Shown here in pieces: positions 4,661 to 64,000 of a stretch of DNA of 64,000 nt. The DNA is from Candidatus Levyibacteriota bacterium (GTDB taxonomy: Bacteria > Patescibacteriota > Microgenomatia > Levybacterales > UBA12049), in assembly GCA_043823085.1 (NCBI GenBank), contig JBDRBE010000003.1, positions 19,822-83,821 of the forward strand, written 5' to 3'. The notes beneath the pieces are model-generated. The model was given only the letters and a program-made list of their open reading frames with translations. It did not search any database and had not been told where the DNA came from. The stretch's first letter is position 1. Each line of letters opens with the position of its first letter. Both the position numbers and the translations under genes were made by a program.

Positions 4661-4910
4661 AAATTGATCGGAGATGATACGGAAATGGGGACGAAGAGGA
4701 TCGCAGAGGCGATTGTTAAAAGCGGGGCATATAGTGTAGTTGGCGGAGGAGATACTACTGAATTTTTAAAACGGCTTGGGATTTTTGATAAATTTGACTT
4801 TGTTTCAACCGGCGGGGGAGCAATGCTCTCCTTTTTAAGCGGCGAAAAATTACCGGGTTTGGAAGCATTGGCCTCTTGAAGGATTTTTTTAGAGAGTATA
4901 TACTCTAAAT

Positions 4911-5951
4911 ATGTTAAGAGTTGCGATAAATGGTTATGGAAGGATTGGGAGAGTTGCGCACCGGGTGATTTTGGAGAAACACGCAAGTGAAATAGAAGTT
5001 GTTGCTATCAACGCCGGATCGTCAACAGACATAAATGGTTGGATGTATCTTCTTAAATACGATACAGTCTATGGTCCGCTGTCTCACGATATCAAAAACC
5101 AAAGATCAAATATCAAAGATGCGATTGGAGATTTTATTATTGATGGAAAGCAAATTCCACTTTTTTCGCAAAAAGACCCAAGTCTTTTGCCATGGAAGGA
5201 TTTAAATGTTGATGTTGTTGTTGAATCGACCGGTGCTTTTCGGACAGAAGAAAAATTAAAAGCGCACATAAGCGCCGGAGCAAAAGCAGTTGTTCTTTCA
5301 GCGCCAGCTAAAGATCAAGTTTCAACTTATATTATTTCGGTTAATGCCAAAGATTATAAAGGCGAAAGTTTAGTCAGCAATACCTCTTGTACTACCAATT
5401 GCATTGCACCGGTTGCCAAAATTATACTTGAGAATTTTGGCATTGAAAAAGCCATGATGACTACGATTCACGGATATACATCGAATCAGCGCTTGCAGGA
5501 TGGGGGGCATAAAGATTATAGAAGAGGCCGCGCTGCCGCAGAAAATATTATTCCTACAACAACGGGTGCGACAAATGCGGCTGCAAAAACCATTCCAGAA
5601 TTGGAAGGAAAATTCAGCGGTCTTGCAATTAGAGTTCCGGTTGCTGTCGGTTCTCTCTCTGATTTCACATTTCTTCTAAAAAGGCAAACTTCAAAAGAAG
5701 AAATCAATGAAGTTTTTAAAAAGGCAGCGGAGGATCCAAATTACAAAGGAATCCTAGAAGTAACTCAAGATCCGATTGTTTCAAGTGATATTATCGGTAA
5801 TCCTCACTCTTCAATTGTCGATCTTTCGCTAACCCAAGTAGTCGGCGGGAATTTAGCCAAAGTTATTGCCTGGTATGACAATGAATGGGGGTATTCAAAC
5901 AGGCTGGTGGAAGAAGCAATAATGATAGGAAATAAAATTTCTAATTCCTAA
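4911..5951 (+). CDS. gap: glyceraldehyde-3-phosphate dehydrogenase, type I
   Basis: INGYGRIGR NAD-binding N-terminus, active-site SCTTNC, and the WYDNEWGYS C-terminal motif. Confidence 0.9.
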   Translation: MLRVAINGYGRIGRVAHRVILEKHASEIEVVAINAGSSTDINGWMYLLKYDTVYGPLSHDIKNQRSNIKDAIGDFIIDGKQIPLFSQKDPSLLPWKDLNVDVVVESTGAFRTEEKLKAHISAGAKAVVLSAPAKDQVSTYIISVNAKDYKGESLVSNTSCTTNCIAPVAKIILENFGIEKAMMTTIHGYTSNQRLQDGGHKDYRRGRAAAENIIPTTTGATNAAAKTIPELEGKFSGLAIRVPVAVGSLSDFTFLLKRQTSKEEINEVFKKAAEDPNYKGILEVTQDPIVSSDIIGNPHSSIVDLSLTQVVGGNLAKVIAWYDNEWGYSNRLVEEAIMIGNKISNS

Positions 5952-5993
5952 TCTCTAAATCCTAAACAAATCCCAATTATCAAAATCTAGAAT

Positions 5994-6587
5994 ATGGAAA
6001 ATCCCAAAGGACTGCCCGATATCAGAATTATTACGATTTCCGGGAGAATTGCTTCCGGCGCTACAACGCTGGCAAAGCATCTGGCTCAAACTTTAAAATG
6101 GAAGCATGTTGAAGGAGGAGATGTTTTTTGGGAGGAAGTAAGGAAGAAAATGGAGCTTTCTCCAAAAGATACACACCTGCGGCCGGATACTGAAGACAAA
6201 ATATTTGACGAACAGTTAATAAAAACATTGAAAGAAGAAAAACAAATTGTTTTGGAAACCAAATTAGCGGCTTTTAATGCTCAAGGAATTACAGGTGTTT
6301 TTAAAATTCTTGCTGTCTGTGATGACAAAAACGAAGGGGATCAAACAGATGTTAGGGTGGACAGGTTAGTGAATAGGGAAGGGGTAACGGTAGAAGAAGC
6401 GAAAAAAGAAATACTTGAAAGAGAAAAAAATGATCTTGAAAAGTGGCGAAGAATGTATGCCAAAGACGATCATAGCTGGGTTTACTGGGATAAAAAATAT
6501 TACGATTTAGTAGTTAATACTTTCAATCATTCTCCTGAAGAAACTCTGGAAATTGCACTAAAAGGGATTGGATATAAATCCGCATAA
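5994..6587 (+). CDS. P-loop nucleotide kinase, probably archaeal-type cytidylate kinase
   Basis: IITISGRIASGATTLAKHLAQTLKWKHVEGGDVF resembles the archaeal CMK N-terminus (ITISGxPGSGKTTVAKxLAExLGxxHVSAGxxFR). Length is 197 aa. Confidence 0.5.
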   Translation: MENPKGLPDIRIITISGRIASGATTLAKHLAQTLKWKHVEGGDVFWEEVRKKMELSPKDTHLRPDTEDKIFDEQLIKTLKEEKQIVLETKLAAFNAQGITGVFKILAVCDDKNEGDQTDVRVDRLVNREGVTVEEAKKEILEREKNDLEKWRRMYAKDDHSWVYWDKKYYDLVVNTFNHSPEETLEIALKGIGYKSA

Positions 6588-9513: not shown

Positions 9514-10764
9514 ATGAAAGTTGCCGATGCAATGTCAAAATATGTTGATTATATATCTGTTGATGCGAAAGTAGGCGATGTTGCGCGTCTTATTTTTGGT
9601 AGGGGAGTTAATGGGGTTCCTGTTTGTAAAGGCAAAAAGGTTGTTGGTCTGATTACGGAGCGTGATATTCTCTCCAAATTTTATCCCACAATGACAGAAT
9701 ATATAGAGGATACTATTCATGCTTCGGACTTCGAGGGCATGGAAAATAAAGTTAATGAAATTTTAGAACTGCCCGCCGAAAAAATAATGACTAAAAATCC
9801 AACTACAATATCTGCAGATATGCCTCTTTTGCGTGCGCAATCTTTAATGTTCACAGAAAAGGTCGGAAGACTTCCAGTAATTGATAAAAAAGGAATTTTG
9901 ATTGGAATAATTGCACAAGGAGATATATTTAAATCAATTGTTGGAGGAAAAGTTCCTCTCGATGAGGAAGATACAGATTTCTACAATTGGTTGGGCGAGT
10001 ATTATGATGAGCTCTATAATTGGGGGAAAAGATTAGATAGTGAAATACCGGCTCTTGCAAAATTATTCCAAAAAGAAAAAGTAAGAAACGTGTTGGATGT
10101 GTCATCAAGCACTGGGGAGCATAGTATTGCCTTGGCTAAAAAGGGATTTGGTGTCGTTGGCATTGAGACAAGCAATATAATGCAGAGACTTGCTCGAAAT
10201 AAACAAAAAGGACTCCCCTTACTCTATAGGAATAAAATAAGGTTTCTGGGAGGATCTTACAAAAAGGAATTAGAAGAGTTAACCTTTAATTTGGATGCCG
10301 CTATTTTTATGGGAAATGCTTTGTCCTCTGTTATAGCTTCTGATAAACGGATACTAGAAGATGTAGTGTGCGTTCTTAATAAAGAAAATCCAATACTTGT
10401 TTTTCAAGTTTTGAATCTTGAGAAAATATTCAAGGTCCAAAATGGTTTTAGAGATTTTAACATAACTGAGCAATCATATGGTGCTGGATCAAAATATGCT
10501 CTCTTATCGTTTTATACAAAAGGACAAAAGAAGAACATATTTATCAGTAGGGCGGTTTTTAGTTTGTCGCATGATAAGTGGGTATTTAGAGGTGTTAGAT
10601 CGACTCCTGTTGTTCCTATAAAAAAACAAAAACTTGTAAACAAATTACGCAAGTTGGGCTTTACTAAATTCAGTTTTTACGGAAGTTCACTCTATCAACC
10701 AATCTTTAAATATCCTTTCAAACCATCAAAAAGTGATTGGTTGAATGTTGTTGCCAAGATATGA
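9514..10764 (+). CDS. CBS-domain pair fused to a class I SAM-dependent methyltransferase-like domain
   Basis: Two CBS motifs in the N-terminal ~140 aa (...GVPVCKGKKVVGLITERDIL..., ...VGRLPVIDKKGILIGIIAQGDIF). A methyltransferase-like G-rich motif (LDVSSSTGEHSIALAKKG) is downstream. Confidence 0.55.
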   Translation: MKVADAMSKYVDYISVDAKVGDVARLIFGRGVNGVPVCKGKKVVGLITERDILSKFYPTMTEYIEDTIHASDFEGMENKVNEILELPAEKIMTKNPTTISADMPLLRAQSLMFTEKVGRLPVIDKKGILIGIIAQGDIFKSIVGGKVPLDEEDTDFYNWLGEYYDELYNWGKRLDSEIPALAKLFQKEKVRNVLDVSSSTGEHSIALAKKGFGVVGIETSNIMQRLARNKQKGLPLLYRNKIRFLGGSYKKELEELTFNLDAAIFMGNALSSVIASDKRILEDVVCVLNKENPILVFQVLNLEKIFKVQNGFRDFNITEQSYGAGSKYALLSFYTKGQKKNIFISRAVFSLSHDKWVFRGVRSTPVVPIKKQKLVNKLRKLGFTKFSFYGSSLYQPIFKYPFKPSKSDWLNVVAKI

Positions 10765-11312
10765 AAAAATTTATTTTTTTCTTTACATTTTTTGTTTTTC
10801 TTTTTTCCTTTCAACATTCGTTTGCACAAACGAAGATGGAGGAGGTCACGGTTGTTCCTCAAGCATCAGTTGATTATCAGCTCCCATACCCGGGGCTTTT
10901 ACCAGACAGTCCTCTTTATATTTTTAAAACAATCAGGGATAGAATAATTGGTTTTCTTGTTTCAGACCCTCTAAAGAAAGCGGAATTCAATTTACTGATG
11001 GCAGATAAACGGTTAATATCAGGTGTTGAGCTTATCAAGAAAAATAAAACAAAAGAAGATTTGGCTTATTCGACAATTTCCAAAGGAGAAAATTATTTTC
11101 AAGAAGCGATTGTAAAAATCAAAGAAGCAAAAAAACAGGGTTCGGACACGACAAAAATCTTAACAAAGCTTTCAATAGCTTCCCGAAAACACAAGGAAGT
11201 TTTGGTAAGTTTGGAAAAACAGGTTACGCCAGAAAAAAGGGCGACCCTGCTTAATTTAGAAAAAAGAGTAGATGAATTCGAAAAAGAGGTTGATGGAATA
11301 GTACCAAATTAA
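10761..11312 (+). CDS. hypothetical secreted protein
   Basis: Signal peptide MKKFIFFFTFFVFLFSFQHSFAQT and a coiled-coil-like C-terminus. The start overlaps the upstream stop (ATGA). Confidence 0.4.
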   Translation: MKKFIFFFTFFVFLFSFQHSFAQTKMEEVTVVPQASVDYQLPYPGLLPDSPLYIFKTIRDRIIGFLVSDPLKKAEFNLLMADKRLISGVELIKKNKTKEDLAYSTISKGENYFQEAIVKIKEAKKQGSDTTKILTKLSIASRKHKEVLVSLEKQVTPEKRATLLNLEKRVDEFEKEVDGIVPN

Positions 11313-11482: not shown

Positions 11483-11511
11483 TTGACACAATAGATCTAG
11501 CGTTTTATGCT
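11483..11511 (+). promoter_or_regulatory. sigma70-like promoter TTGACA-N17-TATGCT upstream of nrdR-nrdJ
   Basis: TTGACA at 11483-11488 and TATGCT at 11506-11511. Confidence 0.45.
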
Positions 11512-11519
11512 TTTCCTGG

Positions 11520-11535
11520 CACTAGATATAGTGTA
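11520..11535 (+). promoter_or_regulatory. putative NrdR box (cACTAGATATAGTGTa) just downstream of the -10
   Basis: The palindrome ACTAgATATAGTgt resembles the NrdR-box consensus acaCwAtATaTwGtgt. It sits in front of nrdR itself, which suggests autoregulation. Confidence 0.45.
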
Positions 11536-11613
11536 GGACATAGAAATTTGCTTAGGTCGGCACGAAAATTTTATTTGCTTATTTGAAATTTGTAGTATTT
11601 GTAGTATTAAGGT

Positions 11614-12063
11614 ATGAAGTGTCCATATTGCGGAAGCAAAGAAACAGAAGTAGTTGAAACAAGAGATAGCGAAGACTTGGAAACAATTCGAAGAAGAAGA
11701 GCTTGTCTAAAATGCGAAAAAAGATTTACGACTTACGAAAGAGTAGAAAATATTAATTTAATAGTTATAAAAAAAGACGGAAAAAGGGAGCAATTCAGCC
11801 GAGATAAATTAAAAAACGGAATTTTAAAGGCAAGCGAAAAAACAAAAGTCTCGCTTGAGAATATAGAAAAAATTGTTACAGAAGTAGAAAGAGAATTGCG
11901 AAGCGGAGATTCGGTTGAGATAGAAAGTAAAAAAATCGGATTAATGATTGCAAATAGACTTAAAAAAATTGACAAAGTAGCGTATATTAGATTTTCAAGT
12001 GTTTTCAAAAGATTTGTTGACGTTGAAGATTTTGAGGAAGAAGTAAAAAAACTCATTAAATAG
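11614..12063 (+). CDS. nrdR: transcriptional repressor NrdR (zinc ribbon + ATP-cone)
   Basis: MKCPYCGSKETEVVETRDSEDLETIRRRRACLKCEKRFTTYERVE is a near-canonical NrdR N-terminus. Confidence 0.9.
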   Translation: MKCPYCGSKETEVVETRDSEDLETIRRRRACLKCEKRFTTYERVENINLIVIKKDGKREQFSRDKLKNGILKASEKTKVSLENIEKIVTEVERELRSGDSVEIESKKIGLMIANRLKKIDKVAYIRFSSVFKRFVDVEDFEEEVKKLIK

Positions 12064-12084
12064 CATATGGTTAAATAAATAATT

Positions 12085-14544
12085 ATGAAATTAGACGGAA
12101 TTAGGCAAAAAGTATTTTTAGACAGATACTCACTAAAAGATAAAAAAGGTAATGCTTTGGAACAAACTCCGGACCGAATGTGGAGGAGAGTTGCCAAGGG
12201 AGTATCTATTGCAGAAAATAAAAAGAATCAGAAAAAATGGGAGAAAAAATTTTATGATGCGATGGAAGATTTTAAATTTGTTCCGGGCGGAAGAATTTTG
12301 GCAGGGGCGGGAACCGGTTTTGCTGTAACTTTTTATAACTGTTTTGTTCTCCCTTCTCCAAAAGACTCACGCGACGGGATAATAGATAATTTAAAATCAA
12401 TGATAGAAATTATGGCCCGGGGCGGGGGAGCCGGTATTAATCTTTCTTCGCTTCGTCCAAAAGGCGCAAGGGTTAAAAAAGTCAACGGATTTTCTTCAGG
12501 TCCCTGCAATTGGGCAGAACTTTATTCTCTTGCAACCCACGATATTATTCAGCAAGGCGGTTCAAGACGCGGGGCATTAATGCTGATGCTTTGGGATTGG
12601 CATCCGGATATTGAAGAATTTATTACGGTCAAACGTGATTTAAAAAGAATAAGCGGCGCAAATTTATCAGTTTGTATTTCCGATAAATTTATGGAGGCGG
12701 TTAAAAAAGACGCTGACTGGGATTTGGTTTTTCCGGATTTAGGAGATAAAGATTACGATGAAAAATGGGACGGAGTATTAAATAATTGGAAAGCCCATAA
12801 GAAGAAAGTCAAAGTTTATAAAACTATTAAAGCAAGATACCTCTGGAATTTAATTTGCGAAGCGGCCTGGCAATCAGCAGAGCCGGGCATTGTTTTTATG
12901 GAACGCTACAACAAATGGTATAACAATTGGTATTGGAATACTGTTAACTGTACAAACCCTTGCGGCGAAGAAGGTTTGCCTTCCTGGGGAGTTTGCAATC
13001 TTTCCTCTTTGAATCTTTCGGCATTTGTCAAAGGCGACAGTGTTGATAAGGCAGGAGAAATGGATTACAAAAGTCTTTGCGAACACGCTAAAATCGGGGT
13101 GAGACTGCAGGATGATATTATTAATATCGATAATTACGCTTTCCCAGAAATTCGCGAACGACAATTAAACGGCGAGCGAAGAATTGGACTTGGGACAATG
13201 GGTCTTGGGGATGCGCTTATTAAAATGCATCTTCGTTATGGATCTGATAAATCGCTAAAGACAATAGAAAAAATATTTAGAACAATAAGAGATGCCGCTT
13301 ATGAGGCTTCGGTTGAAATCTCACGCGAAAAAGGAGCTTTTCCAAAATTCAACGCCCAAAAATACCTCAAAGGATATTTTATTAAAAAACTTCCAAAAGA
13401 AATAAGAGACAAAATTAAAAAATACGGTATTCGAAACTCTTTGCTTTTACAGGAAGCGCCGACTGGCTCAACCAGTCTTCTTTCCGGTGTTTCTTCGGGA
13501 ATTGAACCCATTTACGAATTTGAATTTATTAGAAAAGATAGGCTTGGCGAGCATACGATATGTCATCCTCTATATGAAGAATGGAAAAAAGCCCACCCCA
13601 ACGAGAAAAAACCCGATTATTTTGTTTCGGCCAATGATTTAACTCCGGAAGATCACGTTAAAGTTCAGTCATTAATTCAAAGTTTTGTTGATGCATCAAT
13701 TTCAAAAACCGTTAATGCGCCAAAAGCCCATACGGTTGATGATGTAAAAAGACTTTATGAACTTGCCTACAAGCTTGGCTGTAAAGGAATTACTTACATG
13801 AGAGAGGGTTCAAGAGAGGGAGTTTTAACGCGAGTCGAAGAAAAAAAGGAAGAGGTTGTCAAAAAAGAAATGCCAAAAGTACAAAAACCGGTTGCACCAA
13901 GACCGATGCAGTTGGAGGGAGTTACTTACATGACTGAAACGCCGGTTGGAAAAACCTATATCACAATTAACCATAATCAAGACGGAGATCCATTCGAAGT
14001 ATTTATAACTATTGGAAAATCCGGTTCTGATGTTGCGGCAATGGCAGATGCGCTGGGACGAATGATCTCTCTGAATCTTCGTTTAAATGATTCGCTGCTA
14101 CCGCGAGAACGCATTAGACAAGTTGTCTCACAGCTGGCCGGAATCGGCGGAGCAAGAAGCGTTGGGTTTGGCAAAGAAAAAGTCAGGTCTTTACCAGATG
14201 CCATAGCCAAAATTTTATCAAAACATTTTAGTTTTGCTGTTAATGGTAGTGTTGAAGATAAAAGACCAGCATCAAACGGTGAAGGGCAATCGGGTAACGG
14301 CCATGCGCAAGATGAAGAAAGTCTGGTTTCAGACAAGGCTGATTTGGTTTTAATGCAGCAGTTAACTTTGGGCGGACAAGCAAGCGGTTTACCCTCTTTA
14401 GAAATTGAAGCGTCGGAAAAAACCTATGCCAAAGATCCAAGCGCCACAAATCTTTTTGATATTTGTCCGGAATGCGGAAGCGGAAGTTTAGCTTATGAAG
14501 AAGGCTGTAGAAAATGTTATAGTTGTGGGTATTCAGAATGCTAA
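12085..14544 (+). CDS. nrdJ: class II adenosylcobalamin-dependent ribonucleotide reductase
   Basis: 819 aa. Has GGGAGINLSSLRPKGA, the active-site region NPCGEEGLPSWGVCNLSSLNL, and a C-terminal zinc ribbon CPECGSG...CRKCYSCG. It lies directly after nrdR. Confidence 0.85.
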   Translation: MKLDGIRQKVFLDRYSLKDKKGNALEQTPDRMWRRVAKGVSIAENKKNQKKWEKKFYDAMEDFKFVPGGRILAGAGTGFAVTFYNCFVLPSPKDSRDGIIDNLKSMIEIMARGGGAGINLSSLRPKGARVKKVNGFSSGPCNWAELYSLATHDIIQQGGSRRGALMLMLWDWHPDIEEFITVKRDLKRISGANLSVCISDKFMEAVKKDADWDLVFPDLGDKDYDEKWDGVLNNWKAHKKKVKVYKTIKARYLWNLICEAAWQSAEPGIVFMERYNKWYNNWYWNTVNCTNPCGEEGLPSWGVCNLSSLNLSAFVKGDSVDKAGEMDYKSLCEHAKIGVRLQDDIINIDNYAFPEIRERQLNGERRIGLGTMGLGDALIKMHLRYGSDKSLKTIEKIFRTIRDAAYEASVEISREKGAFPKFNAQKYLKGYFIKKLPKEIRDKIKKYGIRNSLLLQEAPTGSTSLLSGVSSGIEPIYEFEFIRKDRLGEHTICHPLYEEWKKAHPNEKKPDYFVSANDLTPEDHVKVQSLIQSFVDASISKTVNAPKAHTVDDVKRLYELAYKLGCKGITYMREGSREGVLTRVEEKKEEVVKKEMPKVQKPVAPRPMQLEGVTYMTETPVGKTYITINHNQDGDPFEVFITIGKSGSDVAAMADALGRMISLNLRLNDSLLPRERIRQVVSQLAGIGGARSVGFGKEKVRSLPDAIAKILSKHFSFAVNGSVEDKRPASNGEGQSGNGHAQDEESLVSDKADLVLMQQLTLGGQASGLPSLEIEASEKTYAKDPSATNLFDICPECGSGSLAYEEGCRKCYSCGYSEC

Positions 14545-14548
14545 AACT

Positions 14549-14599
14549 AGCGTATAGCGTATAGCGTATAGCGTATAGCGTATAGCGTATAGCGTATAG
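14549..14599. repeat. tandem heptamer (GCGTATA)x7 immediately after the nrdJ stop
   Basis: Seen directly: tagcgtatagcgtatagcgtatagcgtatagcgtatagcgtatag. This unit is the reverse complement of the CTATACGC family found elsewhere in the window. Confidence 0.9.
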
Positions 14600-14644
14600 T
14601 TGTAGTTGTAATTAAAAATTAATTCAGTTAAAATGTTTGCGTGG

Positions 14645-14803
14645 GTAATCACCGTGACCTGCTTTTGCTGAAAGCTTCAGCAAGGCAAGAAATCGGTGGC
14701 AGTGCCGCTACTGTATAGCCAGAAAACCACGCAAAATAACCCCCGTGGGGGTTCCCGAGCAGGAGTTATTATATCCTTCTTGGGAACAAGAGGGATTTTT
14801 TTT
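14645..14803 (+). promoter_or_regulatory. cobalamin (AdoCbl) riboswitch upstream of the PduO-type adenosyltransferase
   Basis: GGTGGCAGTGCCGCTACTGTATAGCCAGAAAACCAC matches the conserved CCGCcACTGTaa core and B12 box AGCCAGgAaACC. A hairpin plus T-run (gggaac...gggattttttttATG) follows. Confidence 0.55.
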
Positions 14804-15370
14804 ATGGTTCGACAAGTTCACCACAAGGTGAAAATTTATACAAAGACCGGGGATAAAGGAAAAACTTCGCTTTTGGGCGGAAAGAGAGTGCCAAAAGATG
14901 ATTTAAGAATTGAAGTTATTGGAGAAATTGATGAACTGAATTCGGTGATTGGAATTGTGATAGCGCAAATCTCAAAGCGCAAATCTCAAAACCAAAACTT
15001 AAAGTTCAAAAATGAACTAATAAATATTCAAAAAGATCTTTTTGGAATTGGGTCATCATTGTCAGGTTTTTTAACTAAACGCTACGTGCTAGACGCTAGA
15101 CGCTTGGAAAAGATGATAGGCGAGTTATCGAAAGAGTTGCCCGTATTAAAGAGTTTTATTCTTCCCGGCGGGGGAGAAAGCGGTTCTTTTTTGCATTTGG
15201 CAAGAGCGGTTTGCCGAAGAGCGGAAAGAAGAACGGTTGGACTTTCTAAAAAAGAAATTGTCGATAAAAGTATCATTATGTATTTAAATCGTCTTTCGGA
15301 TTTATTATTTACAATGGCAAGATATATAAATTTTAAAGAAAATAAAAAAGAAATAATTTGGCCTTCCTAA
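14804..15370 (+). CDS. PduO-type ATP:cob(I)alamin adenosyltransferase
   Basis: MVRQVHHKVKIYTKTGDKGKTSLLGGKRVPKDDLRIEVIGEIDELNS matches the PduO N-terminal signature (KIYTKTGDKGxTSL...). The ATG at 14804 follows the riboswitch terminator; the ORF-track start at 14696 lies inside the riboswitch. Confidence 0.8.
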   Translation: MVRQVHHKVKIYTKTGDKGKTSLLGGKRVPKDDLRIEVIGEIDELNSVIGIVIAQISKRKSQNQNLKFKNELINIQKDLFGIGSSLSGFLTKRYVLDARRLEKMIGELSKELPVLKSFILPGGGESGSFLHLARAVCRRAERRTVGLSKKEIVDKSIIMYLNRLSDLLFTMARYINFKENKKEIIWPS

Positions 15371-15375
15371 GCTTA

Positions 15376-15594
15376 CCGTTCGCCTTTTCAATTCTATTCG
15401 AATACGGCTCACGGAGCGCTTTAAGGCGGGTAAGGTTAAAAAAATTTTATTGAAAGTAAAAATTGGGTGAAATCGGTGTGATTCCGATGCTGTGCCGCAA
15501 CTGTTAAAGCCAGATCCCCATTATCCCGCCAAACGGGATAGATAAGTCTTCCGAGTAGAAGCAATATTTCTCCTCGGAAACGAGGAGTTTTTTT
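15376..15594 (+). promoter_or_regulatory. second cobalamin riboswitch, upstream of an unknown 387-aa protein
   Basis: GGGTGAAATCGGTGTGATTCCGATGCTGTGCCGCAACTGTTAAAGCCAGATCCCC is a very good match to the B12 element core (GGTGAAAxCC...GCcGCAACTGTaa...AGCCAGGATaCC). The terminator hairpin ctcctcggaaacgaggagttttttt ends 2 nt before the ATG. Confidence 0.65.
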
Positions 15595-16758
15595 ATGGGA
15601 AAAGAAGTGTTTTTTGATAGAATAACAGCCAAAAATGTTGGTTTTGATTTACCGCAAGAAGCAGTTAATGTGTCAAGGGCCTTGACAAAATTTCCTTTTT
15701 TAAGAAAAGAAATCATTAAAACTACCGCTCGTCAAATCAGGACTTACGAGTCAGAAACCCTTAAAGATAGTGTCGTGTCTTATTATCCATGTTTTCTGCA
15801 TTCTGTTGGAGGAAAAACGAAATTATTCTCTTCGGATATCCCTCATGAACAATTTTTAATGGAGTCTCAAATAGACTCGATTGAAAGAGATGGTGCGCCG
15901 TTAAATGGTTTTAGAAAATTGCAAGAAGAATTAGGCCGATTTAGCGGGAAAAGATTATTCTTATGGATTAGTCCAAAAGGAAGCGCTGGCAATAAGGGAA
16001 TTTATAAAAAAATTAATTATGGTTATCATCAAATTTATATTGGGACAGCTGAAGACAGAAAAACCCAAGCCTATGCCCTAAAGTCTGATATTGATGAAAG
16101 GGTACTAGCCAGTTGGATTAATCAAGTTTCGAATGGAAAGACTAGCATTAAGGGAGAGGATTCTCTGGAATTTCTCTTTAATCCGGTCGTAGTCCCTTTT
16201 TTTTCTTCGACATATTCTTCCGATGAAATGATAGCTTTCGCCCTGGTTAGATTAAAAAATATTTTGGCAAAAAGCAAGCAGTCGGCATTTTATAAAGATG
16301 TAGAAGTTGAAAACTTACCGGATTCAATGATAGATACAAAAATAGAACAAGAAAGAGATGTTGAAAGAATAGCTAGGGAACTTGATATTCAGCTCTCTAT
16401 GGATAAATGGTTAGGTTATGAAGAAGCTAGACGAGCAATTGGAGGGCAAATGTATGTTTTGTATGAAAGTTATGCTAATAAAAAGGGAGAATTTGAATTA
16501 AAAGGTTGTTCGGGAGGAACAAAAACCACCAAAAATCTTTTTGAGAATGAAATAGATTTATTAATTGAAAATATTTTTTCTACAGCATTCAGAATTAAAA
16601 ATTCTACAACGGATGAAGAATATAAGTTTGATAAAATTGATGATTGTGTAAAATGTGGAGCAAAGAATGTTGCCGTTGGTCCTTGTAAGATCTGCCAGCC
16701 ATGTGACAAAGCATTAAGAGCTAAAAGCGCCGCAAAATATTCCTTCTCCTTGAACTAA
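15595..16758 (+). CDS. hypothetical protein under B12-riboswitch control, with a C-terminal Cys-rich zinc-ribbon-like motif
   Basis: 387-aa ORF with no family I recognise. The C-terminus is CVKCGAKNVAVGPCKICQPCDKA. Confidence 0.55.
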   Translation: MGKEVFFDRITAKNVGFDLPQEAVNVSRALTKFPFLRKEIIKTTARQIRTYESETLKDSVVSYYPCFLHSVGGKTKLFSSDIPHEQFLMESQIDSIERDGAPLNGFRKLQEELGRFSGKRLFLWISPKGSAGNKGIYKKINYGYHQIYIGTAEDRKTQAYALKSDIDERVLASWINQVSNGKTSIKGEDSLEFLFNPVVVPFFSSTYSSDEMIAFALVRLKNILAKSKQSAFYKDVEVENLPDSMIDTKIEQERDVERIARELDIQLSMDKWLGYEEARRAIGGQMYVLYESYANKKGEFELKGCSGGTKTTKNLFENEIDLLIENIFSTAFRIKNSTTDEEYKFDKIDDCVKCGAKNVAVGPCKICQPCDKALRAKSAAKYSFSLN

Positions 16759-16818: not shown

Positions 16819-17304
16819 ATGGACGATTCGCAAAACTCAAAACTCAAAACTCAAAACTCAAATCAACAGGGTGGATTAGTAAATCAGACGGCGAACCAAA
16901 GTTTAGTATCAAATCCTTCAACCGTTACAGAGCCTGTTTCTCCTGTTAGTGTTCCTCAAAAAGAAATTGTGGAGCCGGTTTTAAATCAGCCAATAGCATC
17001 AGAAATTCAGGAGGAATGGGTAAAGCCGTCCCAAGCAGAGCCGGAGATTCAGCCAGAAGTAGAAGAAGCAGGTGTCGAAAAAGTTTCGGAGCTACCAAGA
17101 ATTACAGAAGAGCATAAACAAGTCGGCATAGAGCATGCCAAAGAGTCAACGCCCGTTCAAACAAAACCCTCGGGAACAATTCAATTACCAATGACCGAAA
17201 AAGAGGCGGATTCACAGATAAAATCAACAAAAAATACAGACTCGCCGCATTGGCTGGCAGTTTTAATTAAAAAAATATTTAAACGTTTAAAAGGGACAAA
17301 CTAA
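16819..17304 (+). CDS. hypothetical low-complexity (Q/N/S/P/E-rich) protein
   Basis: ORF starting MDDSQNSKLKTQNS... contains an in-frame (CAAAACT)n repeat (16831-16866) and is followed 1 nt later by the next gene. Confidence 0.4.
   Translation: MDDSQNSKLKTQNSNQQGGLVNQTANQSLVSNPSTVTEPVSPVSVPQKEIVEPVLNQPIASEIQEEWVKPSQAEPEIQPEVEEAGVEKVSELPRITEEHKQVGIEHAKESTPVQTKPSGTIQLPMTEKEADSQIKSTKNTDSPHWLAVLIKKIFKRLKGTN
16831..16866. repeat. tandem heptamer (CAAAACT)x~5 inside a coding region
   Basis: caaaactcaaaactcaaaactcaaaactcaaatc. Confidence 0.85.
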
Positions 17305-17305
17305 A

Positions 17306-19684
17306 ATGAATCTTCAAACTTTTTCTTTTGAAGAAATGGTTTCATTTCTTATTTCGCTTGCCATTGGTTTTATTGGCGCGATAATTTTGGTTGTCGGACT
17401 TTATTTTTTTAGCAGAATTTTATTCTTATGGTACAAATATCGCAATCGCGAAAAAGAATCTTTAGATTCGGTTCTTTTGCAAGTAGCTCTGCCGCGGGAT
17501 AACGAAATTAAAATTGATGCGGCCGAACAATTATTTTCCAGCCTCTCTTCAATTAGAAAAGGGGGCAGGCTTTCTTTTTTAAAACCACAGCCTCATCTTT
17601 CATTTGAAATAGTGGGAATGGCAGGGGATATTAGATTTTATGTTTATGTTCCCAATAAACTTCGGGATATGGTTGAAAAGCAAATTAACGGGGCTTATTC
17701 GGATGCAGAGATTACCCAAGTCGCCGAGAAAGAAGTTTCTCAAAAAAAATATGTGATGGGAGGAGAATATAATATTTTTTCAGAAAAAGGCAAAGTGGCC
17801 TTTGCTTCTTTAAGACTTAAATCCTCCAGTTATTTGCCGATTAAAGCCTATAAGGATCTTCCGGTTGATCCGTTATCTTCCATTACTTCAGTTTTGGCCA
17901 AAATGTCAGAAGGGGAGGGAGCGGCAATTCAGATCTTGGTAAGTCCGTCTGACTCTTCTTGGAAAAAATCGGGAAAGTCATATTTATCTAAAACCAAAAA
18001 GAATGAGGCCAATCCGGAAACCGCCAAATACTCGGCCGACCAAAAAGAACTTGAGGCAATTGAAAATAAAATTTCAAAACCCGGTTTTGATATGGTTGCA
18101 AGAATTGTTGTTTCCTCAAGCACAATGGAATCAGCCCAGGCACATTTAGGAAATATTTCCGGCGCATTTACTCAATTTAGCGGTATGAATTCTTTTACCA
18201 AAAATCGTCATTTTTTCAAAGGATTATTTATGAATGATTTTATTTACCGTTATATGCCCGTTCGTGGTCAAACAAATGTTTTATCCAGCGATGAGCTGGC
18301 AACAATTTTTCATTTTCCAAATAAAAGTATTACAACTCCTCATATTTTTTGGGTGACAGCCAAACGCGCGCCGGCGCCTGCTCAAATTCCAGAAAGTGGT
18401 CTTTATCTTGGTAAAAGCACATATCGTGGAATGAGTAAGCCCATTTATATGAGCTTGGATGACAGACGCCGCCATATGTATATTATTGGAAAAACTGGTA
18501 CGGGGAAAACAGAATTCTTAAAAGAAATGATAATGCAGGATATTAAAGCCGGACAGGGGTTGGCAGTAATAGATCCCCATGGAGATTTGATCGAAGATAT
18601 TCTGCCTCTTATTCCACCCCAGCGCTCTGAAGATGTTATTCTTTTTGATCCTTCTGATCAGCAAAGACCAATGGGAATAAACATGCTTGATGCTCAAACC
18701 GAAGAACAAAAGCATTATGTTGTTTCATCAATTATCGGACTGATGTATAAACTTTTTGATCCGCATCAAACCGGAATTATCGGTCCGAGATTTGAGCATT
18801 CGATACGAAATGCCATGTTAACGGTAATGTGTGAGCCGGGGAATACTTTTGTCGAAGTGGTTAGAGTTTTGACTGATTCTGCTTTTGTTCAGGAACTTTT
18901 GCCAAAAGTGCAAGACCCGATTGTTCGGCGTTACTGGACCGACCAGATTGCTCAAACATCGGATTTTCATAAGTCCGAGGTTTTGGACTATATTGTTTCC
19001 AAGTTTGGCCGCTTTGTTACCAATAAAATGATTCGAAATATTATCGGCCAATCACAAAGCTCTTTTAATTTTAGAAAAATTATGGATGAGGGGAAAATTC
19101 TTTTGGTTAATCTTTCTAAAGGTAAAATCGGCGAGGAAAATTCAAACTTTTTAGGATTGGTTTTAGTGCCTAAAATATTAATTTCTGCCATGTCCCGTCA
19201 AGACATGCCAAAAGAGCAAAGACGCGACTTTTTCCTGTACGTTGACGAATTCCAGAATTTTGCAACACCAGATTTTGCCCAAATATTATCGGAAGCGAGA
19301 AAATATAAACTCAATCTAATTGTTGCCAATCAGTTTATCGGACAAATGGAAGAGGAGGTTAAAAACGCCATTTTTGGCAATGTCGGAAGTTTAGTTGCCT
19401 TTAGGGTTGGCGTGACTGATGCAAATTATTTACAACATGAGTTTCAGCCCACTTTTACCGAAGCGGATTTAATTAATATCGAAAGATTTAATACTTATAC
19501 AAAAACAATTGTCAGCGGCGAGCCGGTGCCGCCGTTTTCTATGGACTTGGTTAAAGATATGGCAAAGGAAAAAGATATTGCCAATCCCAGAGTGGCAGAG
19601 TTAATCAGAGAGCTTTCAAGATTAAAGTTTGGTAAAGATGCTAGTGTAGTTGAAGCGGAAATTGCTCAACGAGCAAGACTTTGA
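17306..19684 (+). CDS. VirD4/TraG/TraD-like type IV coupling-protein family ATPase (DUF87/TraM-recognition-like)
   Basis: N-terminal TM segment. Walker A IIGKTGTGKTEFL, Walker B region FFLYVDEFQNFA, and the C-terminal LIVANQFIGQMEE motif are typical of T4CP/TrwB-like ATPases. Confidence 0.7.
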   Translation: MNLQTFSFEEMVSFLISLAIGFIGAIILVVGLYFFSRILFLWYKYRNREKESLDSVLLQVALPRDNEIKIDAAEQLFSSLSSIRKGGRLSFLKPQPHLSFEIVGMAGDIRFYVYVPNKLRDMVEKQINGAYSDAEITQVAEKEVSQKKYVMGGEYNIFSEKGKVAFASLRLKSSSYLPIKAYKDLPVDPLSSITSVLAKMSEGEGAAIQILVSPSDSSWKKSGKSYLSKTKKNEANPETAKYSADQKELEAIENKISKPGFDMVARIVVSSSTMESAQAHLGNISGAFTQFSGMNSFTKNRHFFKGLFMNDFIYRYMPVRGQTNVLSSDELATIFHFPNKSITTPHIFWVTAKRAPAPAQIPESGLYLGKSTYRGMSKPIYMSLDDRRRHMYIIGKTGTGKTEFLKEMIMQDIKAGQGLAVIDPHGDLIEDILPLIPPQRSEDVILFDPSDQQRPMGINMLDAQTEEQKHYVVSSIIGLMYKLFDPHQTGIIGPRFEHSIRNAMLTVMCEPGNTFVEVVRVLTDSAFVQELLPKVQDPIVRRYWTDQIAQTSDFHKSEVLDYIVSKFGRFVTNKMIRNIIGQSQSSFNFRKIMDEGKILLVNLSKGKIGEENSNFLGLVLVPKILISAMSRQDMPKEQRRDFFLYVDEFQNFATPDFAQILSEARKYKLNLIVANQFIGQMEEEVKNAIFGNVGSLVAFRVGVTDANYLQHEFQPTFTEADLINIERFNTYTKTIVSGEPVPPFSMDLVKDMAKEKDIANPRVAELIRELSRLKFGKDASVVEAEIAQRARL

Positions 19685-19692
19685 CACCTTGA

Positions 19693-19800
19693 GGGTAGAA
19701 GATAGAAGTTTGATGATAGATCTTGAAGTTTGAAAATGGAAGTTAGATTCTATCTTCTAGCTTCTAACTTCAAATTCTAGCTTCTAGTTTCCAGCGTCAA
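19693..19800. repeat. complex imperfect palindrome / inverted repeats in the spacer after the T4CP-like gene
   Basis: TAGAAGATAGAAGTTTGA...TTCTATCTTCTAGCTTCTAACTTC. The arms are reverse complements. Confidence 0.5.
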
Positions 19801-19962
19801 ACATCAAATTTTAACGTCCAGCATCAAATCTTTTTTCTACTTCTTTCCAGTTAACCACATTCCAAAAAGCCTCGATGTATTCTGGTCTTCGATTTTGATA
19901 TCCTAAAATTTAGTTATAAAAAACAAATGTAAAAAGGGTAAGAGAATTGTAAGGTTTTTTAT

Positions 19963-25399: not shown

Positions 25400-26752
25400 T
25401 TGATGAACAATCAATTCAAAAATAAAAAAATTGCCATTGTCGGGCTTGGAATAGAGGGTTTATCAAGCGCAAAGTTTTTTATTGAAAAGCGAGCAGAAGT
25501 TACAATTCTGGACAAAAAAGAAAAAACCGAATTAAACCTAGACACTCCGTTTGTTTTTGGTAAAAATTATCTGGATAATCTTGACTGTTTCGATGTCATT
25601 GTTAGAAGTCCGGGTGTTAAAGTTGATCTTCCAAATCTTCAAAAAGCAAAAGAAAAAGGAACGGTTATCACTTCTCAAATAAAACTTTTTTTTGATCTTT
25701 GTCCCTGCAAAATCATCGGCGTTACCGGAACAAAAGGAAAAGGAACGACCGCGTCGTTAATTTACGAAATGTTTAAAAAACAAACCAGAAATGCGTATTT
25801 GGGTGGTAATATAGGACTGCCTCCATTGGATTTTTTGGACAAATTAAATTCTCACTCAATTGTAGTTTTGGAACTCTCAAGTTTCCAACTCCAAGACCTT
25901 AAAAAGAGCCCTCATATTGCCGTAATTCTTATGACTTTAAGTGAACATCTTGATTATCATAAAGATGTTGAAGAATATGTCAGCGCAAAAAGAAATATTG
26001 TTAAATTTCAAAAGACTTCTGACTTTGCGATTTTAAATATTGATTATCCGGCAAGCCGCGAATCGGATATCCATACTCAGGGAAAAGTATTTTATATTAG
26101 TCGGGAAGGGGAGGTTGGTGAAGGATGTTTTGTGAAAAAAGGGGAAATAAAATTAAAAATTAAAAATGAGGAATTAAAAATTATTGATACTAAAGAAATT
26201 TTATTACCCGGGGAGCATAATTTTGAAAATGTTTGCGCGGCGGTTATGGCGGTTGCACTTTGTAATGTCTCGAAAGAGAATATCATTAAAGTCCTTAAAA
26301 CCTTTAAGGGCTTGGAGCATCGTTTGGAGCTTGTTGGAGAGGTTGGCGGCGTTAAATATTACGACGATTCGTTTTCGACCACTCCCGAAACTGCCATTGC
26401 CGCAATACTGGCTTTTAAAAATCCGGAGATTTTAATTTTGGGCGGGTCAAGTAAAAATTCAGATTTTAGCGAGTTAGGAAAAGTTATTAGTAATGCAAAA
26501 AATATCAAGGCGATTATTGGAATCGGTCTTGAATGGAAAAGAATTAAGTCAACTATACGCCATACGCTATACGCCATACGCTATATTGAAGGATTAAAGA
26601 ATATGCATTCAATTATTCAAAAAGCTTCAGAAATAGCGGAGGTGGGGGATATTGTTCTTCTGTCGCCGGCATGTGCCAGTTTTGATATGTTTAAGAACTA
26701 CAAGGACAGGGGAAGGCAGTTTAGAGAAGAAGTGGAGAACCTCAAGAAATAA
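25400..26752 (+). CDS. murD: UDP-N-acetylmuramoylalanine--D-glutamate ligase
   Basis: Rossmann N-terminus KIAIVGLGIEG and the Mur ligase P-loop IGVTGTKGKGTTASLIYEM. There is an in-frame CTATACGC-family repeat at 26548-26590. Confidence 0.9.
   Translation: MMNNQFKNKKIAIVGLGIEGLSSAKFFIEKRAEVTILDKKEKTELNLDTPFVFGKNYLDNLDCFDVIVRSPGVKVDLPNLQKAKEKGTVITSQIKLFFDLCPCKIIGVTGTKGKGTTASLIYEMFKKQTRNAYLGGNIGLPPLDFLDKLNSHSIVVLELSSFQLQDLKKSPHIAVILMTLSEHLDYHKDVEEYVSAKRNIVKFQKTSDFAILNIDYPASRESDIHTQGKVFYISREGEVGEGCFVKKGEIKLKIKNEELKIIDTKEILLPGEHNFENVCAAVMAVALCNVSKENIIKVLKTFKGLEHRLELVGEVGGVKYYDDSFSTTPETAIAAILAFKNPEILILGGSSKNSDFSELGKVISNAKNIKAIIGIGLEWKRIKSTIRHTLYAIRYIEGLKNMHSIIQKASEIAEVGDIVLLSPACASFDMFKNYKDRGRQFREEVENLKK
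26548..26590. repeat. CTATACGC/CCATACGC repeat inserted in-frame in murD
   Basis: aagtcaactatacgccatacgctatacgccatacgctatattg, encoding STIRHTLYAIRYI. Confidence 0.75.
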
Positions 26753-59226: not shown

Positions 59227-59553
59227 ATGGCAGAAGTAATTATTACCGATCAAAATTTCGAATCAGAAGTTATTAAATCTGACATGCCGGTTCTTGTGGA
59301 TTTTTGGGCGCCGTGGTGCGGGCCATGCCGGATTGTCGGTCCGATTATCGAAGAATTGGCAAAAGAATATGAGGGAAAAGTTAAAATCGGAAAATTAAAT
59401 GTTGACGAAAATTCCGATACTGCGACAAAATATGCGGTGATGAGTATTCCGACTCTTCTTATCTTCAAAAAAGGAAGTCCTTTTAAAACCATGGTCGGCG
59501 CTCTGGCAAAAGAAAATATTAAAAAGGAAATCGATTCAGTAATTAGCGTATAG
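59227..59553 (+). CDS. trxA: thioredoxin
   Basis: Active site WAPWCGPCR. Confidence 0.92.
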
Positions 59554-59620
59554 GGTATAGGGGATAGCGTATAGTTTCCGTTTTAACTATATGCTATACG
59601 CCATTTGCTATACGCTGTTT
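59551..59620. repeat. long hairpin built from GCGTATAG/CTATACGC units between trxA and trxB
   Basis: gcgtatagggtataggggatagcgtatag...ctatatgctatacgccatttgctatacgc. The arms are reverse complements. It may act as a terminator or attenuator. Confidence 0.65.
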
Positions 59621-61411: not shown

Positions 61412-61485
61412 GGGCTCGTAGTTCAGCAGGCTAGAACACTTCATTTGCAATGAAGAGGTAGGCGGTTCGAGTCCGCCCGAGTCCA
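61412..61485 (+). tRNA. tRNA-Cys, anticodon GCA
   Basis: Acceptor GGGCTCG/CGAGTCC, D-arm, anticodon stem CTTCA/TGAAG with loop TTTGCAA, and T-arm GGCGG-TTCGAGT-CCGCC. Confidence 0.8.

Positions 61486-62014: not shown

Positions 62015-64000
<1,986 letters not shown>

Follow-up and report, generated by a model that had tools for sequence, protein, structure and literature searches.

Corrinoid adenosyltransferase genes (btuR, cobA or pduO) reportedly lie behind cobalamin riboswitches in known B12 regulons (Vitreschak/Rodionov et al. 2003). B12 regulons also place B12-independent substitutes, among them metE, nrdEF and nrdDG, under B12 OFF regulation. In humans, CblC (MMACHC) and CblD (MMADHC) act upstream of MMAB, and Salmonella has the reductase PduS with PduO; thiol chemistry and Co-S ligation have been described for CblC and CblD. 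Class II ribonucleotide reductases (RNRs) reportedly carry a C-terminal Cys-rich zinc-finger tail (Loderer et al. 2017), and env8HyCbl is reportedly a class II cobalamin riboswitch. The characterised member of Rfam family RF01689 is env8HyCbl, whose P13 hairpin carries the ribosome-binding site (RBS) and whose ligand preference is for hydroxo- and methylcobalamin rather than AdoCbl (PMC5028336).

The window analysed here is a 64,000-nt stretch of a contig from a Candidatus Levyibacteriota bacterium, a CPR organism with a tiny genome. One strand of it carries, in this order, nrdR, nrdJ, a riboswitch, a PduO-type adenosyltransferase gene, a second riboswitch, and the genes for a protein here called X and a small protein called Y (Table 1). 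As in known B12 regulons, a riboswitch gates a corrinoid adenosyltransferase beside the genes of a B12-dependent enzyme. Unlike those regulons, the present unit lacks transporter and biosynthesis genes, and its most consistently gated gene is that for X rather than the adenosyltransferase gene.

Table 1. Features of the nrdR-to-Y region, with positions counted from the first nucleotide of the window
Feature	Position	Strand	Description
Sigma-70-like promoter	11483..11511	+	TTGACA-17-TATGCT; 5' of nrdR; 10/12 matches
Two NrdR-box-like sites	11486..11534	+	Box 1 and box 2, 33 bp spacing
nrdR	11614..12063	+	Repressor, Zn ribbon and ATP-cone; TIGR00244 186 bits (cut-off 125 bits), PF22811, PF03477
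nrdJ	12085..14544	+	Class II AdoCbl-dependent ribonucleotide reductase; TIGR02504 (NrdJ equivalog model) 559 bits (cut-off 400 bits), PF02867 415 bits
Aptamer 1	14625..14737	+	Class II cobalamin riboswitch; RF01689 34.6 bits, E = 2e-5
Expression platform 1	14752..14803	+	P13, antiterminator, terminator, RBS, T-run
PduO	14804..15370	+	PduO-type ATP:cob(I)alamin adenosyltransferase; PF01923 190 bits, TIGR00636 190 bits (cut-off 108 bits)
Aptamer 2	15452..15525	+	Class II cobalamin riboswitch; RF01689 37.0 bits
Expression platform 2	15548..15594	+	P13, antiterminator, terminator, RBS, U7
X	15595..16758	+	387-aa protein of an uncharacterised family; alpha/beta core, C-terminal Cys4 ribbon and fifth Cys
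Y	16819..17304	+	Small protein, mostly disordered; conserved C-terminal amphipathic helix

The nrdR-nrdJ unit and the PduO gene

Curated models bear out the identities that a first-pass annotation of this DNA had given to nrdR, the class II nrdJ and the PduO-type adenosyltransferase, each product scoring above the cut-off of its model (Table 1). NrdR has the zinc ribbon and ATP-cone expected of the regulon's protein. NrdJ carries a TSCPD domain and a C-terminal Cys-rich tail (CPECG..CRKCYSCGYSEC) which is nearly invariant among the compared loci. The match of the PduO-type protein to PF01923 is full length (1-171 of 171), and its gene really begins with the ATG at 14804. The open reading frame listing gives the GTG at 14696 instead, which was rejected as the start because that frame would run through the riboswitch.

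The same annotation had placed a promoter overlapping an NrdR box in front of nrdR. Both hexamers are present and overlap box 1 (ACACAATAGATCTAGC, 11486-11501), but promoter-type matches in this AT-rich region occur at chance level (15 found vs 15.4 expected) and box 1 is weak, with 5 mismatches. Box 2 (GCACTAGATATAGTGT, 11519-11534), which lies 33 bp downstream of box 1, has 2 mismatches to the consensus ACACWATATATWGTGT, and the window contains 4 NrdR-box matches at 3 mismatches or fewer where 0.55 are expected. The promoter call gains weight only because the promoter and the two box-like sites are kept in the related Levybacteria locus L008, with the -35 and -10 hexamers holding their position. 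NrdR probably autoregulates nrdR-nrdJ through the box-like sites around the promoter.

Cobalamin-clan aptamers and their expression platforms

Both RNA elements are members of the cobalamin riboswitch clan by their covariance-model matches, and we are highly confident that they function as cobalamin riboswitches. When the whole window was scanned at the Rfam gathering thresholds, one cobalamin-clan element was returned (15452-15525), which scores 37.0 bits with RF01689 against a gathering threshold of 36.5 bits. Element 1 (14625-14737) surfaces in a local E-value scan and, taken alone, falls 1.9 bits below that threshold. The first-pass annotation had read both elements as B12 riboswitches to be matched with RF00174, quoting one core and mentioning a second, weaker match. 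Their place in the clan (CL00101) stands, but RF01689 ("AdoCbl-variant", class II) outscores RF00174, a member of the same clan, for both, and RF00174 was accordingly rejected as their class. The second element is the stronger one (37.0 vs 34.6 bits for the first), and the quoted core GCCGCAACTGTTAAAGCCAGATCCCC (15494-15519) lies inside it.

The related loci yielded 13 further cobalamin-clan matches (28.6 to 56.8 bits), with RF00174 as the top model solely in L009 and L011-13. A riboswitch occupies the position equivalent to element 1 in L005/L018 (50.6 bits) and L002 (32.9 bits). Across 11 aptamers, 4 of the 5 pairs of the P5 helix show compensatory changes; a CUG/CAG helix switches to CGG/CCG between aptamers, and P3 can be read straight from the alignment as UGGG/CCCA vs CGGG/CCCG. 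Folding of leader 1 gave z = -4.0.

RF01689 is the best model for the window elements, although their scores sit at its threshold, and they resemble class II riboswitches (Johnson et al. 2012; Polaski et al. 2016, PMC5028336) in being compact aptamers without a large P6 extension, in having a 7-nt L5 of the UGNRAWU type in the present leaders, and in placing a P13 hairpin with a purine-rich loop close behind the aptamer. They depart from that class in that the L5 of aptamer 1 is interrupted by a 36-nt hairpin and that aptamer 2 is joined to P13 by a linker of about 22 nt with an extra hairpin.

P13 reads UUCC-CGAGCA-GGAG (14752-14765) in platform 1 and CUUC-CGAGUA-GAAG (15548-15561) in platform 2. 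Among the 15 leaders compared, P13 statistics were taken on 10 distinct leaders from two lineages. The hairpin is conserved, with 90% of cells paired vs at most 65% when the partners are slid; each of its four pairs shows changes in both partners, and the loop never departs from GAGCA/GAGUA. No L5-L13 base pairs could be assigned from the leader sequences.

In Levybacteria leaders, P13 is followed by an antiterminator and then by a terminator that also hides the RBS. The antiterminator of platform 1 pairs GUUCCCGAG with CUUGGGAAC, and the terminator (14773-14796) holds the RBS AGAGGGA in its 3' arm ahead of a T-run and the ATG at 14804. In platform 2, UUCCGAG (15549-15555) pairs with CUCGGAA (15573-15579), and the terminator (15570-15587), with GAGGAG as the RBS in its 3' arm, is followed by seven Us and the ATG at 15595. 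The hairpin and T-run noted earlier just ahead of each start codon are thus found at both. Antiterminator and terminator 5' arm covary (UUCCGAG/CUCGGAA; GUUCCCGAG/CUUGGGAAC; UCUCUCGAG/CUCGAGAGA), and the pair CUUCCGAAG/CUUCGGAAG has a compensated insertion. P13 and the platform structures are, in this comparison of leaders, supported by covariation. In Roizmanbacteria loci, P13 stands 5-10 nt before the ATG with no terminator and carries the RBS in its 3' arm, as in env8 (PMC5028336). Unlike env8, the window and the other Levybacteria loci have a P13 without an RBS and add the antiterminator-terminator module, which would combine transcriptional with translational control.

Because P13 in Levybacteria precedes an antiterminator and a terminator that hides the RBS, both elements are likely to be OFF switches, with the direction of switching and the form of the ligand both inferred. 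Binding of cobalamin would stabilise an L5-L13 kissing loop and, through it, the short P13 hairpin, which would consume nucleotides that otherwise form the 5' arm of the antiterminator, so that the terminator would form and its 3' arm would also bury the RBS. Without cobalamin, the antiterminator would form, transcription would read through and the RBS would be free. No promoter-like site was seen between PduO and aptamer 2, and X in this genome would therefore be gated by two attenuators in series.

Alternatively, cobalamin could stabilise a longer P13, namely the antiterminator hairpin, and the elements would be ON switches, the inducer of PduO and X being a substrate cobalamin whose upper ligand is small. 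Such a reading would accommodate the minimum-free-energy fold of leader 1, which is the antiterminator, the AAUU-like runs that the AU-rich loop of the long hairpin has in several leaders and that are complementary to the 3' half of L5 (AAUU), and the sensing of hydroxo- and methylcobalamin, substrates of the adenosylation pathway, by the characterised RF01689 member (PMC5028336). Complementarity made of A-U pairs only, however, is expected by chance in AT-rich loops, and the invariant loop with its closing 4-bp P13 is kept in Roizmanbacteria, where without a terminator it carries the RBS, which is an OFF design. All characterised cobalamin riboswitches that act directly on the downstream gene are, to our knowledge, OFF, and we consider ON switching very unlikely.

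Protein X and its genomic neighbourhood

The open reading frame of X is real, having 12 close homologues and about 79 family representatives (sequence clusters), and all named members of the family come from Levybacteria, Roizmanbacteria or unclassified Patescibacteria. The protein had been described as lacking a recognisable family, and this has held: sequence searches of Pfam, NCBIfam and PDB gave no match for X, its structure model (pLDDT 89.7) has no Foldseek match in PDB or BFVD, and 78 family members gave no Pfam or NCBIfam family beyond scattered zinc-ribbon or rubredoxin-like matches. The C-terminal CxxC...CxxCxxC ribbon is likewise there, the tail being CxxC-x9-CxxCxxC, and by its sequence the C-terminus is a zinc-ribbon or rubredoxin-like Cys4 domain. 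Its four cysteines, which form two CxxC knuckles, are invariant in 53/53 and 25/25 sequences and, with E97, S126 and G129, make up the invariant residues of the protein (C351, C354, C367 and C370); a fifth cysteine is present in all 53 aligned members. Neither profile nor fold comparison matched X to B12-binding PF02310, CblC/MMACHC, CblD, CbiZ, CobA/EutT, BtuF or PduS, and X resembles no B12-handling protein of known structure. Its sequence contains neither a conserved His nor DxHxxG nor any other known motif for B12 binding. It also lacks a signal peptide and any transmembrane or hydrophobic segment.

In every locus read, the gene for X either follows a cobalamin riboswitch directly or belongs to a PduO-X operon headed by one. 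The first arrangement is found in the window, L001, L004, L006, L008/L019, L009, L010, L011-13, L014, L015/16 and L017, and the second in L002, where X begins 11 nt after PduO, and L005/L018. In 9 distinct loci other than the window, covariance models detect a cobalamin-clan riboswitch immediately 5' of X, a strongly positive answer to the earlier question of whether homologues of X elsewhere follow B12 riboswitches; the riboswitch was recognised in L004 by a weak match and a visible core motif and in L006 by the visible core motif alone. PduO is immediately upstream of X in 11 of the 12 loci with upstream sequence (20-55% X identity). In L017, where the riboswitch scores best of all (56.8 bits), X stands alone behind it, with neither nrdJ nor PduO nearby. 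The riboswitch in L008, L009 and L010 stands between X and an ungated nrdJ-PduO pair, and in most relatives X is gated and PduO is not, so that X is the core target of the switch. The earlier claim that riboswitches control both PduO and X fits the window, where both elements end in a terminator at the start codons, but most relatives gate X only.

Y always follows X and is homologous in 12 loci, with the motifs EVKEAGVE, LPMTEEEA and S..WLA.L; it has no Pfam match. Other neighbours are a thioredoxin gene convergent to X-Y in 4 loci, a 5'-nucleotidase gene adjoining X in L017 and an ATPase gene downstream in Levybacteria loci.

It is possible that X is unrelated to B12 chemistry and is, for example, a nucleic-acid-binding Zn-ribbon protein or a housekeeping protein carried in the operon. 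Zinc ribbons are common in nucleic-acid-binding proteins, the sole PDB profile matches of X are ribbon-containing ribosomal proteins, and no member of the family has a B12-binding motif or a functional annotation. Against this stands the dedicated riboswitch, which is kept directly 5' of X in two lineages, including the locus without nrdJ and PduO, and is retained in two different expression-platform forms. It would be difficult to account for regulation retained in this way if X had no B12-related role, and an X foreign to B12 is quite unlikely.

Proposed role of X

Regulation and gene linkage suggest a role for X in the handling of cobalamin. The first-pass annotation had proposed an uptake, trafficking or remodelling factor, a proposal that stays an inference; direct uptake is unlikely since X lacks both a signal peptide and transmembrane segments. 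There is about an even chance that X is a new cytoplasmic salvage or trafficking partner of PduO. X, a cytoplasmic protein with a putative metal ribbon, would be made together with Y when cobalamin is scarce and would most likely work alongside PduO to convert scavenged cobalamin or pass it on, whether by removing the upper ligand, by reduction toward cob(I)alamin or by chaperoning through a thiol ligand. The end product of this route would be AdoCbl for NrdJ.

By analogy, X would occupy the same logical place as CblC, CblD and PduS, that of a soluble partner beside a PduO-type enzyme to which cob(I)alamin or cob(II)alamin has to be delivered, and its additional conserved cysteine might take part in thiol chemistry or in Co-S ligation, as described for CblC and CblD. 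X shows neither sequence nor fold similarity to these proteins and no recognisable flavin or Fe-S motifs. It is close to an even prospect that X performs, with a new fold, a step analogous to that of CblC/CblD or PduS in feeding PduO.

Repression by B12 also marks B12-independent substitutes such as metE and nrdEF, and this signature fits because most relatives gate X and not PduO. X, possibly with Y and in Levybacteria with the downstream ATPase, could have a B12-sparing or bypass function that is switched on when the cobalamin supply falls short of what NrdJ needs. Such a function might be an AdoCbl-free deoxynucleotide route, for instance salvage from DNA or deoxynucleosides, or, as the extreme case, a new reductase. 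B12 OFF regulation is the classic pattern of such substitutes, and the riboswitch that parts X from an ungated nrdJ-PduO pair in L008, L009 and L010, the thioredoxin convergent to X-Y and the 5'-nucleotidase beside X would all be in keeping with it. The Cys-rich tails of X and NrdJ also share the pattern CxxC-x9/10-CxxCxxC: the tail of X resembles that of NrdJ (CxxC-x10-CxxCxxC..C), with five cysteines aligning, although the likeness is weak (E = 0.012, a single pairwise comparison). The tails of X, however, vary in layout over the family, unlike the nearly invariant NrdJ tails, and do not co-vary with them, and the thioredoxin linkage is accounted for by NrdJ itself. X resembles neither the RNR barrel nor kinases nor nucleoside-handling folds, all of which are in the PDB, and the adjacency of PduO and X in 11 of 12 loci, with a shared operon in L002 and L005, points to the cofactor pathway. 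A bypass function is therefore unlikely. It is highly improbable that X, rather than handling a cofactor, lies at the heart of a back-up for NrdJ that works without B12, a hitherto unknown means of obtaining deoxynucleotides and, in its most extreme form, a new kind of reductase that is driven by thioredoxin and bears an RNR-like Cys-rich tail; the riboswitch would then turn X on only when cobalamin runs out, as happens with metE and nrdEF elsewhere.

The RNAs of this family form a natural pair of class II cobalamin switches which use one P13 module in a purely translational and in a terminator-coupled form, and the pair helps the study of how expression platforms evolve. As far as we know, the processing and delivery of scavenged cobalamin in cells that do not synthesise it have been detailed for few systems only. 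CPR bacteria often rely on a B12-dependent reductase to make their DNA precursors, and B12 handling is therefore likely to be important for them. Being small and soluble, X can be expressed and assayed directly. Two independent comparative lines tie its family, for which neither relatives nor a known fold could be detected, to B12: the dedicated cobalamin riboswitch kept through two expression-platform designs and the near-obligate linkage to PduO. By this comparative evidence X is a strong candidate for a new B12-handling factor.

Gene order and the putative nrdR promoter

The 11.4-17.3 kb region carries, all on the plus strand, nrdR, nrdJ (encoding the class II AdoCbl-dependent ribonucleotide reductase NrdJ), the gene for a PduO-type ATP:cob(I)alamin adenosyltransferase (PduO), the gene for an uncharacterised 387-aa protein, here X, and a small gene, Y, 3' of X. 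A 224-aa PduO ORF with a GTG start was set aside as an artefact of mechanical ORF calling because its start falls within the first riboswitch. Coding-strand bias is strong in the window (1-64000), where 41 of 45 ORFs of at least 180 aa lie on the plus strand.

Features of the locus and period-7 repeats (window coordinates)
Feature	Position	Strand	Remarks
Sigma-70-like promoter, TTGACA-17-TATGCT	11483-11511	+	consensus match
Second NrdR-box-like site, weak	11486-11501		overlaps -35/-10 spacer
NrdR-box-like 16-bp site	11519-11534		2 mismatches to NrdR-box consensus
nrdR	11614-12063	+	TIGR00244, 186 bits
nrdJ	12085-14544	+	TIGR02504, 559 bits; TSCPD domain and Cys-rich tail
TAGCGTA x7.4, perfect array	14548-14599		between nrdJ and riboswitch 1
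Terminator hairpin 1	14773-14796		followed by T-run abutting ATG
PduO-type adenosyltransferase	14804-15370	+	TIGR00636, 190 bits
Terminator hairpin 2	15570-15587		followed by T-run abutting ATG
X, 387-aa ORF	15595-16758	+	
Y, small ORF	16819-17304	+	
792-aa HerA/VirD4/TraG-like ATPase	17306-19684		N-terminal transmembrane segment; PADLOC mad8-like, 1e-15
Other period-7 repeats	16831-16862, 19744-19810, 26553-26585, 39723-39753, 44016-44066, 49574-49631, 59544-59574		

Consensus promoters are no commoner here than in shuffled sequence (15 versus 15.4), so the TTGACA-17-TATGCT match alone is no proof of a promoter. NrdR-box sites with three or fewer mismatches number four in the whole window versus 0.55 expected, and both hexamers and both box sites recur in unchanged order before nrdR in another Levybacteria genome (locus L008). 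A putative NrdR-controlled promoter before nrdR is likely from these sequence features. A perfect 9-bp tandem repeat (ATTTGTAGT x2.3, 11588-11608) directly precedes the ribosome-binding site and start codon of nrdR, within a 5' leader stretch of about 80 nt that is missing from L008.

Two genes upstream of nrdR, the product of 9514-10764 has two CBS domains fused to a SAM-methyltransferase-like domain, and a DUF5667 gene (10737-11312) lies between this gene and nrdR. The presence in L008 of a 417-aa ORF similar to the fusion in size and position suggests that the neighbourhood upstream of nrdR may be conserved in Levybacteria. The intergenic DNA is dotted with period-7 tandem repeats across the whole window, and the TAGCGTA unit recurs 45 kb from its perfect array. 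A 14-bp duplication (2x7) occurs within the PduO ORF (14962-14990), and UAGCGUU repeats occur within the X leader of a related locus (L010, about 2620-2645). Compared with the bacterial Rfam model, the 23S rRNA gene (62020-64000) contains three insertions, of 21, 107 and about 90 nt; the 61 kb upstream of it contain no 16S rRNA gene, only a tRNA (61412-61485), so the rRNA genes appear unlinked.

Riboswitch class and leader architecture

The first-pass annotation had proposed two cobalamin riboswitches, to be checked against RF00174. Both elements do fall in the cobalamin clan, while the class changes: the element before X (aptamer 2, 15452-15525), the sole riboswitch in the 64 kb at curated thresholds, matches RF01689 (37.0 bits versus 36.5; Rfam), as does that before PduO (aptamer 1, 14625-14737; 34.6 bits, E = 2e-5 in a local scan). 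Judged by these covariance scores, both are class II ("AdoCbl-variant") members rather than RF00174. Related loci gave 13 more cobalamin-clan matches (28.6-56.8 bits), placed relative to the genes as in the window, and an alignment of 11 aptamers contains compensatory changes in four of five P5 pairs and in the CUG/CAG helix. As a promoter for riboswitch 1, 14606-14634 was dropped because its -10 would put the transcription start within the aptamer. On the Roizmanbacteria-type contig L011 (63-253), as well as in L012 and L013, the database gene call for the X homologue (426 aa) starts within the riboswitch aptamer; NCBI's call for the cluster of this homologue (365 aa) and the P13-ATG geometry put the true start some 60 codons further on.

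Soon 3' of each aptamer, the leader alignment contains an invariant block, YYCCGAG-Y-AGRAG. In Roizmanbacteria-type loci this block folds into a hairpin, CCC(C) GAGCA GGG, whose end lies 5-10 nt upstream of the ATG, and so it carries the ribosome-binding site. The layout is that of P13, the short hairpin 3' of the aptamer, in env8HyCbl, a characterised RF01689 member in which cobalamin fixes L5 and L13 (the loops of P5 and P13) in a kissing interaction and the ribosome-binding site is hidden (PMC5028336). Covariation shows the 4-bp P13 stem to be real, with 90% of cells paired, versus at most 65% with slid partners, and changes on both sides in all four pairs. A hairpin at 15519-15540 was ruled out as P13, being missing from L001 and L008.

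P13 is also kept in Levybacteria loci, but there its nucleotides have the 5' arm of the terminator as an alternative partner. The resulting helix, a predicted antiterminator, co-varies among Levybacteria leaders: it is UUCCGAG/CUCGGAA in window leader 2, GUUCCCGAG/CUUGGGAAC in leader 1, UCUCUCGAG/CUCGAGAGA in L010, and CUUCCGAAG/CUUCGGAAG, with a compensated insertion, in L008. It is the minimum-free-energy fold of leader 1 (z = -4.0). In the window leaders the ribosome-binding sites, AGAGGGA and GAGGAG, lie within the 3' arms of the terminator hairpins. From the conservation of P13, the co-varying alternative helix and the terminators, we infer a three-state OFF switch. Cobalamin would stabilise P13 through a putative L5-L13 kissing loop; formation of P13 would block the antiterminator, allowing the terminator to form and sequester the ribosome-binding site. 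A sequence scan found no promoter-like site between PduO and aptamer 2, and X may therefore be gated twice in series.

Genomic association of X and Y

Seventeen further X loci were read, several of which are one arrangement recovered twice. Contig scans of genomes and metagenomes, whose search patterns were too specific, returned four loci, with L007 duplicating L003. PduO, counting cut or split copies identified as PduO, lies immediately upstream of X in the window and in L001, L002, L004, L005/L018, L006, L008/L019, L009, L010, L014 and L015; L017 is the only locus with upstream sequence where it does not directly precede X. Whether X homologues elsewhere also lie behind B12 riboswitches, a check proposed in the first-pass annotation, was answered in the affirmative by covariance models, which placed one directly before X in L001, L008/L019, L009, L010, L011-13, L014, L015/16 and L017. 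L004 has a weak RF00174 match before X, and the GCTGTGCCGCAACTGT core is present with large insertions in both L004 and L006. In L002 and L005/L018 the riboswitch precedes PduO and X is next in one unit, the PduO-to-X gap in L002 being 11 nt. X alone is gated in L008, L009 and L010, where nrdJ and PduO are ungated, and in L017 X alone stands behind the best-scoring riboswitch (56.8 bits). This placement across loci marks X as the core target of the switch in its lineage.

Y is found 3' of X in every locus long enough to show it. Most of it is disordered; it has EVKEAGVE and LPMTEEEA as conserved motifs and ends in an amphipathic helix. Levybacteria loci couple Y translationally to the membrane-anchored ATPase (in the window Y ends 2 nt before it; coupling is also tight in L001, L003, L004 and L008), whereas Roizmanbacteria-type loci keep X-Y followed by a convergent thioredoxin in place of the ATPase. 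Since the window has no predicted terminator from X to the ATPase, the riboswitches may gate the ATPase too. L011 also encodes, 3.5 kb from X (4822-6465), a 547-aa radical SAM protein in which a B12-binding domain is weakly matched (23 bits, under the Pfam cut-off), so a second B12 client besides NrdJ may exist.

The X family and its role

A protein identical to X is listed, as a hypothetical protein, for a metagenome-assembled genome of Candidatus Levyibacteriota, which places the window in a CPR/Patescibacteria bacterium; 12 close homologues share 47-58% identity. A profile search of 1.84 billion representatives gave a family of 79 proteins at E <=1e-3, nearly all of 350-430 aa; a second, word-indexed search with a broad X profile added none. 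Named members belong to Levybacteria, Roizmanbacteria or "Patescibacteria group", one being UniRef A0A2H0WTU6, "Uncharacterized protein". The earlier description of X as lacking a recognisable family stands: apart from sporadic zinc-ribbon or rubredoxin-like matches, Pfam, NCBIfam and PADLOC scans gave no family for X or for 78 family members, and searches of PDB sequences with the single sequence and a 53-sequence profile returned zinc-ribbon matches only. AlphaFold2 with a 53-sequence alignment modelled X (pLDDT 89.7, pTM 0.78; first model, pLDDT 67) as a mixed alpha/beta core flanked by an N-terminal helical segment and a C-terminal ribbon. Foldseek matched neither model to the PDB (best E 0.075 and TM-scores <=0.2 with the better model) and found no match in BFVD.

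E97, S126, G129 and the four ribbon cysteines are invariant, and E54, D58, S62, R98, G100, G105, W124, P127, Y148, K163, P197, Y233, G304 and R333 nearly so; a fifth cysteine lies near the C-terminus of every member, in varying layouts. The sequence of X contains no hydrophobic segment, transmembrane segment or signal peptide, and an uptake role for X itself was dropped for want of the latter two. A defence-system or phage origin of X or Y was likewise dropped, there being no PADLOC or BFVD fold match. The X tail weakly resembles that of NrdJ (E = 0.012), a sequence likeness to be taken as a lead only; co-variation of the tails as a sign of a shared partner was rejected, as the tails of NrdJ are nearly invariant and those of X differ between members.

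The riboswitch class, NrdR, NrdJ and PduO are already known. What is new is the X(-Y) family, consistently under riboswitch control and linked to PduO, and the proposed derivative of the class II P13 platform that is coupled to a terminator; the literature searched describes none of these, nor B12 riboswitches in Patescibacteria. The regulation of X says that it is wanted when cobalamin is scarce. The main rival reading, a B12-sparing back-up function, would fit such regulation, which is in the style of metE or nrdEF, but is at odds with the PduO linkage and seems improbable. That linkage says that X works with the adenosyltransferase. By its sequence, X is soluble and cytoplasmic, bears a metal ribbon and keeps both an additional thiol and a polar site conserved. 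The mechanism with most support, to which we give an even chance, is that X salvages cobalamin or traffics it on to PduO, which could be by removing the upper ligand, by reduction or by a thiol-ligated hand-off.
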